A stretch of 64,000 bases of DNA, from positions 985-64,984 of the forward strand of contig JBAZCS010000001.1 in the NCBI GenBank assembly GCA_041654855.1, written 5' to 3'. Below, one piece after another: positions 41,750-56,206 of the stretch; within the stretch, counting starts at the first letter, position 1, and each line of letters starts with the position of its first letter. The DNA is from Bacilli bacterium. GTDB lineage: Bacteria > Bacillota_I > Bacilli_A > RFN20 > CAG-826. Made by a program: the position numbers and the translations under genes. Under the pieces are notes generated by a model that saw nothing but the letters and a program-made list of their open reading frames with translations, was not told where the DNA came from and searched no databases.

Positions 41750-43480
41750 TTAACTTGTTTGTCGCGATGGGAAATTATTTAAGTTTGTCGCCCTTACCCC
41801 CACCGAATTTCCTAGGGTGTTATCAATATAAAAAGTTGAAGGATCAGTGAAGTAATAAACATAACCATTATTATTTGGATAGTCGAGCATATTGTAATAT
41901 GCGCTGCCAGCATACGTACCATCAAACTTTAAAATCGTCCGTTTGGGAACGTAGGTTTCATCCATTAAGTCTTCAAAATTACCGTTAGACATGCGGTAAG
42001 TGTAGTCGACGGCATCAATAAGACCGGCGTCTTCACCACCACTTTCATTAGTGCCGGAAAGCGTTAAATAGAAGAAGCTCGCACTCGTCGCCGCATATTG
42101 ACTTGAGGCGGCCACTAAAAATTCATAACCCGCACTAACCATTGTTTGTGGAATACGGAAGTCAAAATAAACACCAGTCCGGTTACCGACCGCAGCTTTA
42201 CTAATAGAAAAGCGCACTTCATTAAGATTCGTAATTGTTGTCCCATTACGTTTGAATTGATAAACAGAGATTGATTCATTATCGGCACCTTGGTTAAAAC
42301 GGAAGAAGGAAAGGCCACTCGTACCACCTTTTTTCGGCTTAAACCAAATTGAGTTACGGGGAGCGGTCATATTTGTGCCCGCTTCACTTGGGAGCGTTAC
42401 ACTATTACTCCATGTATTATTCGTGTTTCTTGTCGGCGGGTAAGTTGAAGCTAAAAGCACAGTCCTTGCAGTCCCGAGACTTCGCACTTGTTGATAACGC
42501 GCCCAAAACTCTTCATGGACTAAGGAAGCGTGATTAGCGTCAGTAATCGTTGTAATATTACTAGTCGTCGTTGTAATAACTTGGTTTTGGTTTTCCGCGA
42601 CTTCGACTAATGGATTATATTTAACAAAACTTGAGTTACTTGCATTAACAGAAGAAGTTTGGGTCGTTAAGCTACCCACGTAATAAGCACTGCCAATAAT
42701 GGAATTAGGGACGGCGACGGTGCTTGGGTAGTTGACGTTCGTAAATAAGTGACCGGGATAGTTTGGGTCGACAAGTAAATTACCGGCTACTCCTTGGTCA
42801 GGATTATCGGACCATGTAATATAAGGACCTAGCTTACCAATTAATGAATAATCGCTCGTTACTCGAATGGCACTTGGGCCTAAGGAAATCTTTGCATTTT
42901 TAACCCCAATTCCCTTTAATGTTCCGTTAGCGTATCCCGCAACAAGCCCGACATAGCTATTGTTAACTTTGTTTGAAACTTCAAGGTTTTCAAGATAAAA
43001 GTTTTGCGCCAAGCCGATAATTGGTGGTTCATCTTCAGTTGAACCTAAATTACCAAAAAAGCCGATTGAATTACCAACATCTACAATTTCAAAGTGGCTT
43101 GGTTTTTCTTTCCAATCAAGGGGATCACTCGATACCCATAAGTTTTTAAGCGTATAGCCATTACCGTCAAAACTACCAAGAAATGGGGCTTCGTCAGTGC
43201 CAATTGGGGGAATAGCACCGCTATGAATGTCTAGAAAGCCCGTTAATGAGCCTTTCATATCAATATCATTGCCAAGTTCAAAATATGTTTTTTCTGGACA
43301 GGCGCCGCTATTTTGCAGCCAGGAGAAGTTATATAGATGTTTTGGGGTGCGAATAATGTAGGGATCAGCTTCTGTTCCGGTTCCGCTTGCGTAATAGTTA
43401 CTAATTGAACTACCGGTCATTTTTGTGTTAAATTGCAAAACAGTCGTAAACCATGCCATTGTTGTCGTTACTAATGACAA
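41750..43480 (-). CDS. Large secreted/surface protein with a TasA/TapA-like SipW-cognate N-terminal motif (TTMAWFTT). The 5' end is out of frame with its coupled ATG.
   Basis: 576-aa ORF rich in N/T/S/G. MAWFTT parallels TWAAFND of TasA and SAAFHD of TapA. The ORF-track start is a TTG with no RBS. An AGGAG-coupled ATG at 43536-43534 is in another frame (see findings). Confidence 0.55.
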   Translation of the reverse strand: MSLVTTTMAWFTTVLQFNTKMTGSSISNYYASGTGTEADPYIIRTPKHLYNFSWLQNSGACPEKTYFELGNDIDMKGSLTGFLDIHSGAIPPIGTDEAPFLGSFDGNGYTLKNLWVSSDPLDWKEKPSHFEIVDVGNSIGFFGNLGSTEDEPPIIGLAQNFYLENLEVSNKVNNSYVGLVAGYANGTLKGIGVKNAKISLGPSAIRVTSDYSLIGKLGPYITWSDNPDQGVAGNLLVDPNYPGHLFTNVNYPSTVAVPNSIIGSAYYVGSLTTQTSSVNASNSSFVKYNPLVEVAENQNQVITTTTSNITTITDANHASLVHEEFWARYQQVRSLGTARTVLLASTYPPTRNTNNTWSNSVTLPSEAGTNMTAPRNSIWFKPKKGGTSGLSFFRFNQGADNESISVYQFKRNGTTITNLNEVRFSISKAAVGNRTGVYFDFRIPQTMVSAGYEFLVAASSQYAATSASFFYLTLSGTNESGGEDAGLIDAVDYTYRMSNGNFEDLMDETYVPKRTILKFDGTYAGSAYYNMLDYPNNNGYVYYFTDPSTFYIDNTLGNSVGVRATNLNNFPSRQTS

Positions 43481-43537: not shown

Positions 43538-44257
43538 TTACACTCCTACGTAATACGTAATGTGATCAGCGTACATTACTTCCTTAATTGAATCAGCGCG
43601 AATATCATTTATATAATTCATGACGGGAACGTTATATTCAATAACAAACCACAATTCATTATCACTGTTTGATAAAGTAGTAAGCGGGATTCGTGTTTGT
43701 TTTACAGGATTAGGATTTAAACTAACAAACGAAGTAGTGTTCGCTTTGTTATAAGTTAAAGTGGCGGTTGACCAACCATTTGGTAACGATACAGGGTTAG
43801 CGCTTGTTAATTGAAAAACATTAGATGTAACATTTTCATCATACTCGCCGGCGCCGCTATGTCCGGTATGAAAAGCACCAGCGTTTGTTTTTGCATATAA
43901 GTAAACAGTACTCGTTTCGGTATATGTGAAGGTAATATGCACAACTAAGGCGCGCCGATATTGCGTATATTCAATATCTTGGGGATCAAAACGCGGCATA
44001 CGGACCGCCGGACTATTTTCAAAAGTATAACTATTTGTTGTTGACCCTTCATTAACGACCGTAACGGGGTAAACATTATAGGAATGAATTTGAAAGCCAG
44101 GAGCGGCAATTTCAATTTGGCGGGCAATAATTTGTGCGCGATTATTATTCGTAAACCACGCAAAAGTGGTAATTGTAAAAGAAGAGATCAAACCGATGAG
44201 AATAACGAAATTCAAAATAATAAGCGAAATTTTACGATTAAGAATTTTGTTTTTCAA
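43538..44257 (-). CDS. Secreted protein with a SipW-cognate-like signal peptide (TTFAWFTNNN), TasA/camelysin-like size.
   Basis: 239 aa. TTG start with an AGGAAAGGAAG RBS. N-region KNKILNRK, h-region ISLIILNFVILIGLISSF, then the T-x-A-W-F-T motif. Confidence 0.55.
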   Translation of the reverse strand: MKNKILNRKISLIILNFVILIGLISSFTITTFAWFTNNNRAQIIARQIEIAAPGFQIHSYNVYPVTVVNEGSTTNSYTFENSPAVRMPRFDPQDIEYTQYRRALVVHITFTYTETSTVYLYAKTNAGAFHTGHSGAGEYDENVTSNVFQLTSANPVSLPNGWSTATLTYNKANTTSFVSLNPNPVKQTRIPLTTLSNSDNELWFVIEYNVPVMNYINDIRADSIKEVMYADHITYYVGV

Positions 44258-51613: not shown

Positions 51614-52600
51614 ATGAAACTCTTAAAAACGATGTTATTCATGCTTTTTTTAACGCAAATTATTCCGCCCCAGGAATACGCTGCCCCAATCAGTGGCATT
51701 TTACCTTATACGCAGTATCCCAAAGACGTTACTAAGCCGGTAATGGTCTCTTTTGTCTATCATACAACAACTGAGATGACGCTTGAATATGAGTTTTACG
51801 TAAAAAACCCAGAGGGTAAGGTTGTTTTTAATCGGCCGAAACGGCAAATATATTTAGGAAATAATACCGAACTACCGATTTATTATTATTCTTATTCTGG
51901 AGCGACGGGGGTGGGCCGTAATTCTTTAGTGTTTTTACATCGTCCGCTTGGAGAAACAACGTATAAAATCCATACCATATATTTTTATGGCTTTCGCCCC
52001 GGTGTCGAAGTTGATTTAAATGATAAGGTTGATCGTGACACTAAGTTTAGTGAAGAAACAGTTTACGAATATTTTGGCTACACTGCCGGGACCGCCCGTT
52101 TTATTAAAACATCAATGTATAGTAGTGGGCTTATTGAAGAATTAGAGTTGAATCACGATTTATTTCTTAATTTAGATAATCTTTTTCTAAGAACTAACGC
52201 GAAGTATGAAAACGGTGATCAATTGTTTGATGACGCCCGTCTTTATATTAGTGATAAAACATTATACCCGTATCATCTGCATAGTTATGATGGGGAAGCG
52301 GTGCTCCATATTAAACTTATTAAAAATGATTATATTATTTCTTTACATCCCAAAACAATTGTTTATTACGACCCAATTACTCATTTAACGTGTATGGCTT
52401 ATAAAAAAGGGTTTTTACAATCAACAAAATATTTATTTCCAAAAGGACGGAAAGATGATGTTGAAGCAGCGAGTTTTCGTTTGGAAATAAAAGGGCTCGG
52501 TTTTAATAAGTTTAACGCAACCTTTCGCTTTAACGTTAAAATCGCTGATGTCTTTGTTGGCGAAGATGGGTATCACGAAGTAAGGATTGAACGTAATTAA
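51614..52600 (+). CDS. Hypothetical secreted protein (signal peptide), first gene of the Tad-like cluster.
   Basis: MKLLKTMLFMLFLTQIIPPQEYAAP signal-like N-terminus. Y/F-rich, beta-rich composition. 328 aa. Confidence 0.5.
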   Translation: MKLLKTMLFMLFLTQIIPPQEYAAPISGILPYTQYPKDVTKPVMVSFVYHTTTEMTLEYEFYVKNPEGKVVFNRPKRQIYLGNNTELPIYYYSYSGATGVGRNSLVFLHRPLGETTYKIHTIYFYGFRPGVEVDLNDKVDRDTKFSEETVYEYFGYTAGTARFIKTSMYSSGLIEELELNHDLFLNLDNLFLRTNAKYENGDQLFDDARLYISDKTLYPYHLHSYDGEAVLHIKLIKNDYIISLHPKTIVYYDPITHLTCMAYKKGFLQSTKYLFPKGRKDDVEAASFRLEIKGLGFNKFNATFRFNVKIADVFVGEDGYHEVRIERN

Positions 52601-52601
52601 T

Positions 52602-52973
52602 ATGTGGTGGAAATTAGCGTTTGTTTTTCTTTTTCTTTTTAGCGCTCAGTTTACAACTAGTGTACGTTTTAGTCATGTTAATGAAGTGTTTAATAGTATT
52701 ACGCATGATTATGTTTATCACGCCATCACCTTTAGTGAACAAAGCGAAGAAGCATATTTTAATGAAACAACGGTAAACACGATTATTGATGAACATTTCA
52801 CTAATAACTTAAAAGTCAAAAATTACGAGCATAAGATTACTTTTTACCGTAATGGACGGATTAAAAAAATTGGTGAAAGGAGTAATGAGTTTCATATAAA
52901 CCTAAAGGCTAATCTCGGCTTTAATGTGTTTTATGAGAAAACATTTAAATACTATGTCACACGCAATCGATAA
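52602..52973 (+). CDS. Small hypothetical protein with an N-terminal signal/TM segment.
   Basis: MWWKLAFVFLFLFSAQF hydrophobic N-terminus. 123 aa. Overlaps the start of the downstream ATPase gene. Confidence 0.4.
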   Translation: MWWKLAFVFLFLFSAQFTTSVRFSHVNEVFNSITHDYVYHAITFSEQSEEAYFNETTVNTIIDEHFTNNLKVKNYEHKITFYRNGRIKKIGERSNEFHINLKANLGFNVFYEKTFKYYVTRNR

Positions 52974-53892
52974 TGTTATTAGTATTATTGAAACTAGTTT
53001 CCTAAAAGATTTATTAAGTGATGAATCAATTACGGATATTAGTTATAACGGGCAAAATCTTTACTTTTTCTCAAGTAAAAGCGGGCGCGCCTTTTATAAA
53101 AGCATTGATAATAGCCAAGTTTTAACGTTTCTGCGCAATATCGCCAATTACGCGAATGTCCGTTTTTCTTATAGTGATACTTTCTTAGATATCTCTGTTG
53201 GTAAATATCGCTTAAGCGCAATGCATTATGCGCTTAGTCGCTTTGGTTATAAAGAAAGCTTAAGCTTTGCCTTACGCATTAATCATAACTTTTTAGCGCG
53301 TAATCCGCATTATCTTGGCGAAAAGTTAGGCGCCATTTTACAAGATATTATGAGTAAAAAAAGATCGATTATTATAAGTGGAACGACGGGTGTTGGAAAA
53401 ACAACATTACAAAAGTATTTATTAATGTTATTACCACCGAATACGCGTGTATTAGTCATTGATAATGTATTAGAGTTAGGTGAAGTTCACACTTTAAATG
53501 AAACGTTAGATATAACACTTTGGCAAACGAAAGATAATAAAGAAGAAGCGATTCGTGAATATGTGCAAAGGGCGCTACGCTTTCATCCTGATTATTTAAT
53601 TATTGCCGAAAGTCGCGGTCACGAGATGAAAGAAATATTACAAGGAGCGATAAGTGGTCATCCTAACATTGTTACCTTACACGCTGATAGTGCCGAAATC
53701 GCTTATGACCGTGTGTTGTATTTAAGTGGCTCGCCCAATAAAGATGCCTTATACCATGCTTATCCTTATGTTATTCATCTTGCGAAGAAGGAAGACAATA
53801 AAGGACAAGTAAAAAGATATATTGAAAGAATAACGGCCTATGACGTTAAAACGAAAAAGATTAAAGTAATCTACTGTGAGGATAAAGAATGA
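52954..53892 (+). CDS. Secretion/pilus-assembly ATPase of the VirB11/CpaF(TadA)/archaeal FlaI clade, minimal length (312 aa).
   Basis: Walker A ISGTTGVGKTT. Asp-box-like PDYLIIAESRG. His-box TLHADSA. No large N-terminal domain. Confidence 0.7.
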   Translation: MSHAIDNVISIIETSFLKDLLSDESITDISYNGQNLYFFSSKSGRAFYKSIDNSQVLTFLRNIANYANVRFSYSDTFLDISVGKYRLSAMHYALSRFGYKESLSFALRINHNFLARNPHYLGEKLGAILQDIMSKKRSIIISGTTGVGKTTLQKYLLMLLPPNTRVLVIDNVLELGEVHTLNETLDITLWQTKDNKEEAIREYVQRALRFHPDYLIIAESRGHEMKEILQGAISGHPNIVTLHADSAEIAYDRVLYLSGSPNKDALYHAYPYVIHLAKKEDNKGQVKRYIERITAYDVKTKKIKVIYCEDKE

Positions 53893-54581
53893 CCCTAGTT
53901 ATCATCTTCCCCCTCTTACTTGTTATATTAATTGGCACATATTCTTATCTTGTTCTTGGTAGTGTTTTCTATTTAATGATAAATAGTGCAATCACCTTAC
54001 TATTTGCGATATATTTAGCGATTCGTCTATATTATTATCAAAATCTTATTGCCCGTAAACGCTTTATGTTTTCGTTCATTGAACTTTTTATTTTAAATTT
54101 TGATGTGCAAAAAAGTATTGAAGCAACGATGGCCATTATTTTCCCCTTATTTAGCGCAACCGAGCAAAAAACATTGAATCGCTTGCAAAAAGGCGATGGA
54201 TTGAGTCTTGTTGAGCAGTTAAAGTTATATTTTAATGATTATTATTATGAATCATTTTTTGATATGTTAATGGTGGTCGTTGATCGTGGGGGCTCTTTTA
54301 TTAAGGTGAGTGAAGTGCTTTTATACACCATATCGGATAGTGAAGCGCAGCTTATTAAATTAAACCGCATTGACAATACTTATTTAATTAAGTTTGTCTT
54401 TAACTGGCTTTTTATTATGGCCGTTGCTGTTATCTTTCGTTTTGCCTTAAACGATACGATAAACCTTAATAATTTAGACTTAACGTATTTAGTAGGTAAT
54501 GAAATATTTATGGGTACCTTTTTACTAAGTTTAACGTTACTTATTGAAAATAGATTACGGAGGAGTAAAAATGTCACTTAA
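53889..54581 (+). CDS. Polytopic membrane protein, TadB/TadC-like (single T2SS-F-like domain).
   Basis: Directly follows the ATPase with an ATGA overlap. N- and C-terminal TM helices flank a soluble helical region. 230 aa. Confidence 0.45.
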   Translation: MTLVIIFPLLLVILIGTYSYLVLGSVFYLMINSAITLLFAIYLAIRLYYYQNLIARKRFMFSFIELFILNFDVQKSIEATMAIIFPLFSATEQKTLNRLQKGDGLSLVEQLKLYFNDYYYESFFDMLMVVVDRGGSFIKVSEVLLYTISDSEAQLIKLNRIDNTYLIKFVFNWLFIMAVAVIFRFALNDTINLNNLDLTYLVGNEIFMGTFLLSLTLLIENRLRRSKNVT

Positions 54582-55170
54582 GAAATTATTAAAAGCGTTA
54601 GCACTACTTTGTATTATAAGTGGATTAGCGCTTATTTTTTGGCTCCGAAATTATTTAATATATGGAATGTTAATTGTTGTGGGCATAGGCTTATATTATT
54701 TTTCGACAAAAAAAGATGAAACAAAAGATAACTTAAATATCGCTAATTTTATTAATGTTTTTACGCATTTTCGGGTCGCTCTTGATAGTGATGCGAATGT
54801 CTTTAATGCTTTAAGCGCTAGTTTAGAGTTAACAAGCGGACGGATGCATGAAGAATTAGAGCGGCTTATTAGCGCCATTAATAAAGATCATAGTGTCACC
54901 CCCTTTATTACTTTTGCAAAAAAATATAATCACCGCTTTGTTACCCACATCATGATTAATATTTATATGCTTATTAATCACGGTCTTGATCCGAAAAGAC
55001 TTTGGCAATTTAACTATTTATTTGAAACATTACTGAAAGAATATAACGACGCTGAAATAAGCAAGCATCAAAATAGTTATGACCGCTTTGATTTAAGCCT
55101 CTTTCTCGGTAGTGGCATTATGATGTTTACGATTATGGGCAGCATTCTTTCGCTTTTAGGAGGAGCGTAA
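54571..55170 (+). CDS. Polytopic membrane protein, TadC-like (single T2SS-F-like domain).
   Basis: FTHFRVALDSDANVFNALSASLELTSG resembles the GspF-family conserved helix. TM helices at both ends. 199 aa. Confidence 0.45.
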   Translation: MSLKKLLKALALLCIISGLALIFWLRNYLIYGMLIVVGIGLYYFSTKKDETKDNLNIANFINVFTHFRVALDSDANVFNALSASLELTSGRMHEELERLISAINKDHSVTPFITFAKKYNHRFVTHIMINIYMLINHGLDPKRLWQFNYLFETLLKEYNDAEISKHQNSYDRFDLSLFLGSGIMMFTIMGSILSLLGGA

Positions 55171-55508
55171 TGAGTAATATATTTGGGTTAATGTATTCTT
55201 TTATCTTAATATTACCGACTATTCTTTTCGGTGTTGATGTAACGCGCATCAGCACTATTCGCACATACTTAGAAGCTCGAGCAACGGTTGTAAGTTACCA
55301 AATAAGTAAAGAAGGGGGCATCAAACAAAGCTTAATCAATAGCTTAGAAGAAGAAGGGATTACGATTGAATGCAGCGGTGAATGCACTTATATAAGTATG
55401 GGGGAAACAATAAGTTTTCGTTTAGTCCGTACGTATACACCGATGATTTTACAAAAGGAAGAAATGGAAGTAAAAGTTACAAGAGTTGTAATCGTCGGTT
55501 ATTTATAA
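55170..55508 (+). CDS. Small N-terminally anchored protein, TadE/pseudopilin-like.
   Basis: 112 aa. N-terminal TM helix followed by a beta-rich domain. Coupled start (ATG overlaps the upstream TAA). Confidence 0.35.
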   Translation: MSNIFGLMYSFILILPTILFGVDVTRISTIRTYLEARATVVSYQISKEGGIKQSLINSLEEEGITIECSGECTYISMGETISFRLVRTYTPMILQKEEMEVKVTRVVIVGYL

Positions 55509-55523
55509 AAGAAAGGAGGAGCT

Positions 55524-55673
55524 ATGTCAGAATTAAAAGGACAACTATTTGGCATTATCTTAGTTATCTTAATGTCAGTCGCCATTGGTGGCGCGATTAA
55601 AGCCGTCGTCAACAATAATGTGCAATCCATTAATAGCCAAGAATCAGCCGCTAATAGTGCGATGGGTTTTTAA
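55524..55673 (+). CDS. 49-aa pilin-like peptide (Flp/archaeal-type class III signal candidate). Not in the supplied ORF track.
   Basis: Strong GAAAGGAGGAG RBS 3 nt before the ATG. MSELKG-QLFGIILVILMSVAIGGAIKAVVNNNVQSINSQESAANSAMGF. Charged leader, KGQ, hydrophobic helix, then an N/S/Q-rich tail, as in Flp pilins. Confidence 0.4.
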   Translation: MSELKGQLFGIILVILMSVAIGGAIKAVVNNNVQSINSQESAANSAMGF

Positions 55674-55762
55674 TACCCTTTTTAAACGGGTTAAGGCGCT
55701 TAATCACTTTTTATTGAAATATCGTTTGTTATTTGCTAAAATCTCTTTCTAGAGGTACATTT

Positions 55763-55990
55763 ATGACAAATTTAGCACGTATTGAACAAATATTCACCGA
55801 AATCTTAAAGGTTGAAAAGATTGAACCAAGCATGGAATTAAAATCACTTGGCCTTGATAGCCTTGATTTAGTCGAAGTAATGATGAAACTTGAAGAAGAG
55901 TTCTCAATCGAATTTACGAACGATGAAATGCTTAGTTTTACGACTGTTGGTGACGTTCTTGCCGATATTGAGAAAAAACTTAACAAATAA
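55763..55990 (+). CDS. acpP: Acyl carrier protein.
   Basis: LGLDSLDLVE phosphopantetheine-attachment motif. About 75 aa. AGAGG RBS. Confidence 0.75.
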   Translation: MTNLARIEQIFTEILKVEKIEPSMELKSLGLDSLDLVEVMMKLEEEFSIEFTNDEMLSFTTVGDVLADIEKKLNK

Positions 55991-56053: not shown

Positions 56054-56128
56054 GCCTAGTTAGCTCAGCGGCAGAGCAATCGGCTGTTAACCGATCGGTC
56101 GTAGGTTCAAATCCTACACTAGGCGCCA
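56054..56128 (+). tRNA. tRNA-Asn (anticodon GTT), CCA encoded.
   Basis: Acceptor GCCTAGT/ACTAGGC. D-arm GCTC/GAGC. Anticodon stem ATCGG/CCGAT with loop CTGTTAA. T-arm GTAGG-TTCAAAT-CCTAC. Discriminator G then CCA. Confidence 0.85.
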
Positions 56129-56129
56129 T

Positions 56130-56206
56130 GGCCCGTTGGAGAAGCGGTTTAACTCACATGCCTTTCACGCATGCATTCATGGGTTCGAATCCCGTACGGG
56201 TCACCA
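56130..56206 (+). tRNA. tRNA-Glu (anticodon TTC), CCA encoded.
   Basis: Acceptor GGCCCGT/ACGGGTC (one G-U pair). Anticodon stem CATGC/GCATG with loop CTTTCAC. T-arm ATGGG-TTCGAAT-CCCGT. Closely resembles Bacillus tRNA-Glu. Confidence 0.8.

Follow-up and report, generated by a model that had tools for sequence, protein, structure and literature searches.

A small protein gene following a Tad-like operon of Bacilli encodes a candidate major pilin without the canonical motifs

The subject of this report is a short open reading frame (ORF) of 49 codons and the operon that it closes. Both lie in a stretch of 64,000 nucleotides (nt) from the genome assembly of a Bacilli bacterium (contig JBAZCS010000001.1 of GCA_041654855.1, positions 985 to 64,984 of the forward strand), which as a whole is called the window here. 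The ORF had been singled out as pilin-like in a preliminary description of the window. It runs on the plus strand from an ATG at 55524 to a stop codon at 55671-55673, and its translation is MSELKGQLFGIILVILMSVAIGGAIKAVVNNNVQSINSQESAANSAMGF. The start codon lies 15 nt past the stop of a gene for a protein of 112 amino acids (aa), named E112, and is preceded by the Shine-Dalgarno (SD) site GAAAGGAGGAG at 55511-55521 (+), with a spacing of 4 nt between GGAGG and the ATG. This site had been taken for the strongest ribosome binding site of the cluster. It is indeed the longest SD match, though marginally, but the gene for E112 and that for the protein D199 further upstream also carry GGAGGAG. The only hydrophobic segment in the hydropathy profile covers roughly residues 8-25, the tail behind it is polar and rich in Asn, Ser, and Gln, and residue +5 after Gly6 is Ile in the window copy, that is, the Glu5 of type IV pilins is absent. 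The ORF can be divided into two parts:

55524..55541, +, codons 1-6 (MSELKG), putative class-III-type leader, always six residues long, with M1, E3, K5, and G6 invariant
55542..55673, +, putative mature pilin of 43 aa plus stop codon, beginning with Q7, then a hydrophobic helix spanning 8-25 (about 18 residues) and a polar tail of variable sequence (26-49)

The gene had also been called unannotated. This holds for a track of ORFs of at least 60 aa, but gene callers list the protein elsewhere, the exact 49-aa sequence being predicted on 16 public contigs. Conservation was assessed in a sample of 80 loci, each from a different species genome encoding a relative of the neighbouring ATPase; such a relative is encoded in 296 species genomes. 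A small ORF on the same strand, reading M-[SGA]-E-[ILVF]-K-G and continuing into a hydrophobic helix, was found in 75 of the 80 loci, always right after the E112 gene and before the acyl-carrier-protein gene acpP. In the remaining five the contig breaks off before this point. The more distant loci with a small ORF encode ATPases that are only about 36-45% identical to that of the window.

Among 79 distinct copies of the small ORF the residues E3, K5, and G6 are invariant and S2, L9, L13, and F18 nearly so. Of the start codons, 76 are ATG and three are GTG or TTG, and an SD-like site is found no more than 20 nt upstream in 78 of the 79. The codons at conserved residues vary: Ser2 is written as TCA, TCT, TCG, TCC, or AGT, Gly6 with all four of its codons, and Leu9 with six. 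Because the invariant residues are written with many codons, the small ORF is a real gene under purifying selection at the protein level, and it is strictly co-inherited with the genes of the machine described below. Its existence and its synteny in relatives, both raised in the preliminary description, are thus confirmed.

Selection on the protein across the 79 copies rules out a chance ORF as well as an element acting as RNA only. A scan with Rfam over the small ORF gave no RNA family above chance; the weak overlap with Trp_leader scored 20.7 bits (gathering score 41, E 0.31). This overlap, the small size, and the position at the end of the operon are the points that could be raised for a noncoding or chance ORF, or for a peptide of bacteriocin, signal, or holin type that the adjacent ATPase system would export. 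We regard all of these as very improbable. The hydrophobic helix of 18-22 residues starting at residue 8 is a membrane anchor and not the body of a bacteriocin, and neither a double-glycine leader nor an immunity gene nor a lysis context was seen. A bacteriocin-type peptide was rejected for these reasons.

A word-indexed homology search gave only six close relatives, and a profile search was needed to reach the whole family. The family profile, made from the window protein and the six relatives, was searched against 1.84 billion representative proteins and returned 122 clusters at 50% identity, all with lengths of 41-96 aa and all matching from residue 1. All 32 cluster members that were fetched start with M-[SA]-E-[ILV]-K-G-Q. 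The K-G-Q junction emphasized in the preliminary description is general in its first two residues, which are invariant in the 79 copies, but not in the third: Gln at +1 occurs in 62 of them, and T, S, N, or A in the remaining 17. Position +5 is I, V, L, or M and position +6 is I, L, V, or M, with one F, so that the absence of Glu5 first noted for the window protein extends to the entire family (79/79), as does that of Tyr6. Along the protein, a nearly invariant N-terminal stretch of about 18 residues is followed by a hypervariable tail, and the six residues of the leader are more conserved than positions +1 to +4.

In three species the small gene is present as tandem, diverged duplicates (L058:9795-10156, L077:9675-10067, and L084:9684-10063). 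The first tandem copy starts with GTG in two of these loci and with TTG in the third. Many of the longer family members end in an aromatic motif (LLTF, LLHY, LLSY, LLNY, or YHY/YHF) past a low-complexity spacer rich in S, T, A, and P; this C-terminus was seen in P0156, P0196, P0214, P0224, P0225, P0232, P0240, and P0243 and in the loci L028, L033, and L068.

The small ORF is the last member of an operon, and the gene order of the region is gmk (minus strand), a gene of about 110 aa in many species though not in the window, A328, B123, the ATPase gene, C230, D199, E112, small ORF, and acpP. The operon is among the most syntenic blocks of these genomes and sits amid housekeeping genes, between gmk and acpP, in at least 60 species. 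In the window it comprises, upstream of the small ORF:

51614..52600, +, A328, first gene of the operon, 328 aa, signal or lipoprotein-like peptide at the N-terminus, then a variable body outside the cytoplasm
52602..52973, +, B123, bitopic protein of 123 aa with one N-terminal transmembrane (TM) helix and an outside domain of about 100 aa
52954..53892, +, secretion/pilus ATPase, 312 aa (319 aa with the alternative start at 52933), PF00437 (T2SSE)
53889..54581, +, C230, polytopic membrane protein of 230 aa, TadB-like platform half with one GspF-type cytoplasmic domain
54571..55170, +, D199, polytopic membrane protein of 199 aa, TadC-like platform half
55170..55508, +, E112, 112 aa, N-terminal helix and small outside domain, TadF/TadE-like candidate minor pilin

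The ATPase matches the Pfam family T2SSE (1.3e-18). Against NCBIfam, the VirB11 and the TadA-family models both reached about 92 bits, in both cases under the cut-off. Its profile found A. fulgidus GspE2 in the PDB with 3e-29, followed by HP0525/VirB11 (5e-25), CpaF (1e-22), and FlaI (1e-21). Judged by these scores, the ATPase belongs to the archaeal type IV pilus/Tad/VirB11 side of the superfamily (the archaeal-GspE/VirB11/CpaF group) and not to the PilB/GspE side. The public precomputed Pfam assignments place the ATPase (L001 5431-6369) and its close relatives in a new family, PF27713 'UCP018868'.

The two polytopic proteins C230 and D199 are paralogous (hhalign 95.9%, E 5.9e-9). T2SSF is their commonest Pfam match, a weak one, with 3 of 25 members for C230 (best E 0.02) and 5 of 24 for D199 (best E 0.012); in the PDB the C230 profile found nothing and the D199 profile only chance matches. 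An AF2 model of D199 (pLDDT 77) was compared with the PDB using Foldseek, and the top coherent matches were the cytoplasmic domains of OutF, EpsF, PilC, TcpE, and SpoIIIAB (probability 0.54-0.95, target-normalised TM-score (TMt) about 0.6, with E values of 0.3-2.4, which are not significant). C230 and D199 are two adjacent platform genes with a GspF/PilC-like fold in a TadB/TadC arrangement. According to Denise et al. 2019 (PMC6668835), Tad and archaeal Epd-like systems are characterised by two adjacent platform genes with a single T2SSF domain each.

E112 begins with M-[SG]-x-K-[ILV]-[GAS], which is MSNIFG in the window, followed by a hydrophobic helix, and has an invariant Asp23 in the alignment. 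TadF (PF16964) is the sole Pfam family matched by several of its members (5 of 24, best E 2.5e-4, below threshold). A single-sequence AF2 model was unusable (pLDDT 41). TadV cuts Flp, TadE, and TadF, and the six-residue N-terminus of E112 ending in G, A, or S would be a parallel to this processing. When the pilin family was aligned with the E112 family by hhalign, the N-termini came into register with a probability of 10.9%, which was not taken as evidence of homology. B123, whose family is found directly before the ATPase in 78 of the 80 loci, has no class-III-like Gly motif; it matched no Pfam family and had no similarity to E112 in a comparison of both.

A T2SSE ATPase combined with a GspF-type platform makes up the engine of a type IV filament, engines of this kind polymerise proteins with an N-terminal hydrophobic helix, and for this reason the small protein is favoured as a pilin. 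Of the three candidates in the operon it is the 49-aa protein that has the size of a Flp pilin, the longest SD match, and a pilin-like conservation profile. The tandem duplicates in three species and the K-G-[Q/T/S] junction, which has the shape of a class III signal peptide, argue in the same direction. We therefore think it fairly likely that a minimal machine of the Tad-like (type IVc-like) kind has the 49-aa product as its major pilin of Flp size, cut after G6 and assembled by the ATPase via C230 and D199, with E112 as minor pilin. The Flp-like overall shape pointed out in the preliminary description is borne out by a locus with a type IV filament ATPase, TadB/TadC-like paralogues, and a TadF-like protein. 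That description had left the choice between a divergent major pilin and a small membrane peptide recruited to the locus. The first is the best reading, while the second is disfavoured by the co-inheritance and by the N-terminus of E112.

The following picture of the cleavage at Gly6, the formation of a filament, the parts played by E112, A328, and B123, and the function of the system is inferred. The prepilin would be inserted into the membrane with its six-residue N-terminus, MSELKG, on the cytoplasmic side. An aspartic (A24-type) prepilin peptidase encoded elsewhere would cut after the invariant Gly6, so that the mature N-terminus is probably Q7; the resulting helix of 43 aa would have Gln as its first residue, from which pyroglutamate could form by cyclisation. 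Extraction of the mature helix from the membrane and its polymerisation would fall to the hexameric T2SSE ATPase, working via the TadB/TadC-like C230 and D199, and E112 with its N-terminus of the same kind could serve as a minor or priming pilin. In the filament the conserved hydrophobic N-terminal half would form the core and the hypervariable polar tail would be exposed at the surface. By analogy with Tad pili, adhesion would be the most likely function, and A328 is possibly an adhesin or an anchor.

The closest known counterparts are the Flp pilins (PF04964), such as Flp-1 of Aggregatibacter and PilA of Caulobacter. Like the small protein, these have a mature length of about 40-60 residues and a single helix without a globular domain, as described for Tad pilins (PMC10710030), and they share with it a Gly at -1, which is invariant here, and a variable C-terminal tail. 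Their loci encode an ATPase of the TadA type, a pair of half-size platform paralogues, and TadE/F-like proteins; the window locus has a platform pair of this kind, with the T2SSE ATPase and the TadF-like candidate E112 as probable counterparts of the others. Unlike Flp pilins, the small family has neither Glu5-Tyr6 nor a match to Flp_Fap, and its leader is fixed at six residues with invariant M, E, K, and G. In contrast to Tad loci, no tadV or tadZ was found in or near the window locus. The final position of the small ORF had been likened to that of Flp in Tad loci, which is not a general rule. In the classical loci of Aggregatibacter and Caulobacter flp or pilA comes first, and flp after tadC is the actinobacterial order.

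The preliminary description had seen the junction as closer to archaeal signal peptides. The archaeal Epd pilins with the class III signals of EppA (Methanococcus maripaludis) do resemble the small family in Lys-Gly at -2/-1, in the mostly conserved Gln at +1, in their shortness, and in having no requirement for Glu5; furthermore, their systems have two platform genes (PMC6668835), and the best PDB match of the ATPase profile is an archaeal GspE. Against this stand the bacterial host, the replacement of Gln at +1 in 17 of the 79 copies, an ATPase scoring nearly as high to VirB11 and CpaF, and the lack of any EppA or FlaH homologue among the proteins seen. The archaeal Pilin_N family (PF07790) is matched by only 2 of 56 members (best E 0.0026, that is, about 0.003), and a layout with two platforms is common to Tad and archaeal Epd systems (PMC6668835). 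An archaeal affinity is thus not demonstrated. DUF6112 is matched by 6 of the 56 members, which is probably TM-helix noise. The single 49-aa protein had no match in Pfam and NCBIfam, and the profile of the pilin family gave only chance TM matches in the PDB.

A competence pilin of the ComGC type, as known from Bacilli, was considered and rejected. ComGC likewise belongs to monoderm hosts, and its hydrophobic N-terminal helix follows a short basic leader with K-G at the end. In contrast to the small protein, however, it has Phe at +1, Glu at +5, and a folded C-terminal part, and it is assembled by ComGA and the two-domain platform ComGB. The small family has neither of these residues, and the window ATPase reaches 52.9 bits with the ComGA model, for which the cut-off is 300.

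A second group of relatives was found on plasmids. When plasmids were searched with the ATPase by tblastn, the best full-length matches were ATPases of the 'CpaF/VirB11 family' from conjugative plasmids of Gram-positive bacteria (Listeria pLIS40, one plasmid of E. faecium, pXO2, and pBS64, which is pLS20-like), with 27-30% identity over 93-96% of the length. These lie in modules that encode, in this order, a bitopic protein of about 125 aa, the ATPase, polytopic proteins of about 268 and about 245 aa, a DUF4320-like protein of about 120 aa, and a protein of 47-50 aa with a single TM helix:

L097:5389-9447, module of pBS64 (pLS20-like), collinear and partly homologous
L096:5419-9632, module of Listeria pLIS40, likewise
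L098:3499-7737, module of the E. faecium plasmid, likewise
L099:3676-7797, module of pXO2, likewise

With hhalign, C230 aligned with pLS20 gene 38 (90%, E 1.5e-6), D199 with gene 39 (93%, E 3e-7), and E112 with the DUF4320-like gene 40 (92%, E 5e-7). B123 had no detectable similarity to its positional counterpart, gene 36, and the small protein reached a probability below 1% against both sets of plasmid small proteins at the position of gene 41. On the basis of these profile alignments and of the tblastn matches, the window operon is collinear and homologous with pLS20 genes 37-40, and gene 41 occupies the same position as the 49-aa ORF. The plasmid small proteins start with MLDQN[TA]DR or M[QL]ENNV[SF]R, two identical copies being present on pBS64. 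Their third residue is acidic, and a basic one directly precedes the helix. In the paper on the pLS20 family, gene 37 is called 'putative VirB11', genes 36 and 38-41 are listed as 'Unknown', the small counterpart is given as 'unknown, 1 central TM', and Gram-positive conjugative elements are stated to form no conjugative pili (PMC8557374).

Gene order and gene sizes are shared between the pLS20 module and the window operon. The plasmid ATPases, however, are about 90 residues longer, and the pLS20 module lies inside a conjugation operon with VirB4, VirD4, and relaxase genes, whereas the window operon is chromosomal and surrounded by housekeeping genes. The window operon, with its conserved place between gmk and acpP, is not part of a conjugation system.

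Several observations weigh against the interpretation of the small protein as a processed major pilin. The comparison with Flp_Fap, proposed as a check in the preliminary description, came out negative, none of 56 family members matching at E<=10, and the Glu5-Tyr6 motif of Flp pilins is present in 0 of 79 copies. The T2SSF and TadF assignments are sub-threshold sequence matches combined with non-significant Foldseek E values. A TadZ- or FlaH-like second ATPase is not among the conserved families of the operon, which has one P-loop protein. The higher conservation of the leader compared with positions +1 to +4 is odd for prepilins and could mean that the leader is retained. At the position of the ORF, the plasmid small proteins have no Gly before the helix. 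Finally, no A24 prepilin peptidase was found in the operon, in the unassigned membrane ORFs of the window, in the examined parts of the contig of about 79 kb that carries the window genes, or among the hydrophobic ORFs in the flanks of the 80 loci.

Two of these points can be put into perspective. Glu5 points outward in the Tad pilus of Caulobacter, where it makes no inter-subunit salt bridge, and it is not conserved among archaeal type IV pili (PMC10710030), so that its loss would be structurally tolerable. The missing peptidase is not conclusive, because the search covered the loci and parts of the contig and genes for such peptidases commonly lie at a distance from the pilus genes: tadV is accepted as a 'loner', and no peptidase is encoded in MSH loci (PMC6668835).

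Nevertheless, the leader outconserving positions +1 to +4 and the plasmid proteins without Gly at -1 keep another reading alive, in which the filament subunit is left unprocessed. The N-terminus, perhaps minus Met1, would be retained, and the invariant Glu3 and Lys5 would take over the charge-pairing or registration provided by the classical Glu5 and N-terminal amine, making a type IV-like filament that is independent of a peptidase. This would also agree with the absence of an A24 peptidase from the regions searched, with a very short leader whose side chains carry no net charge, and with the acidic and basic residues at comparable places in the plasmid proteins. We consider it unlikely. A K-G-[QST] junction before a hydrophobic helix is the textbook shape of a class III signal, the distance of many peptidase genes from their pilus loci applies here as well, and E112 has the six-residue length and the small residue 6 but no Glu3, which is easier to reconcile with a common cleavage site than with a common structural function. 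Extended to the plasmids, the idea would be that the window operon and genes 36-41 of pLS20/pXO2 build an unrecognised class of type IV-like filaments from subunits of about 45 residues, with no A24 peptidase and with a retained, functional N-terminus; we hold this to be rather doubtful. As for processing enzymes, Listeria pLIS40 has a gene for a type II CAAX (CPBP) intramembrane endopeptidase about 3 kb downstream of its module (L096:11790-12440), which was not seen in the fetched parts of the other three plasmid regions. It is conceivable that this endopeptidase is a processing enzyme of a non-A24 kind.

The failure of the small protein to match any pilin hidden Markov model (HMM) also bears on a further alternative. 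The product could be a small single-pass membrane protein that remains unpolymerised and acts as a structural or regulatory accessory of the ATPase or platform, any filament being formed by E112 or B123. Imam et al. pointed to tad loci of Gram-positive bacteria whose structural subunits might be TadE-like proteins (PMC3244431), and the description of the plasmid counterparts goes no further than a central TM segment (PMC8557374). But a hypervariable tail, tandem duplications, and the strongest SD site of the operon typify an abundant subunit exposed at the surface, and size and shape equal those of Flp pilins. We assign a low probability to an accessory of this kind.

With the small protein read as the major pilin, the system would be a minimal and highly divergent Tad-like machine with a class of pilins that lacks the canonical motifs. 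We found no description of it in the literature on Tad pili, Mollicutes/Tenericutes, RF39, and pLS20. The labels of the metagenome-assembled host genomes include Bacilli, Mollicutes, Tenericutes, and Erysipelotrichaceae, and an earlier census took Mollicutes as a pilus-free negative set (PMC3244431). Since the family matches no Pfam pilin model and has no Glu or Asp at +5 as used by motif-based finders, a surface organelle of the abundant, uncultured Bacilli of gut, rumen, and digesters is probably under-represented in censuses of type IV filaments. The family would also illustrate how little a pilin needs, having neither Glu5 nor Tyr6 and a leader of six residues. The operon bears on the plasmids as well. 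Its homology to pLS20 genes 37-40 offers a hypothesis for conjugation genes listed as 'unknown', which may form, as a block, a Tad-like filament module and are present in genetically tractable Bacillus plasmids. If the operon and the plasmid module did build filaments from unprocessed subunits, wall-poor gut Bacilli would carry a pilus that is independent of a peptidase. Gram-positive conjugative plasmids would then have a conjugative pilus machine in their 'VirB11' module, at odds with the pilus-free view of Gram-positive conjugation.

Further observations concern the two ends of the operon. A328 is called as a gene of 328 aa in public assemblies, its family is found at the same position in 61 of the 80 loci, and 20 members gave no Pfam match. 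Upstream of it, 43 of the 80 loci have the conserved gene of about 110 aa (e.g., L022:5209-5571 and L042:5238-5558), which is missing from the close relatives of the window. It has the motif ...INN[DE]FF..YP.WW...[ST]xYYR.K..A...FL and no Pfam match, and may be a regulator. Downstream of the small ORF, acpP lies at 55763-55990 and has a promoter-like site of its own at 55714-55742; a scan for terminators between both genes gave nothing convincing. Two tRNA genes follow just 3' of acpP at 56054-56125 and 56130-56203 (+), and translated tRNA genes surfaced as a spurious 'protein family' when the ORFs of the related loci were clustered.

Elsewhere in the window, two adjacent genes at 41750-43480 (-) and 43538-44257 (-) encode secreted proteins without a Pfam match that have an 'AWFT' motif past an N-terminal hydrophobic stretch. 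We take these N-termini to resemble SipW-dependent signal peptides of the TasA/camelysin type.

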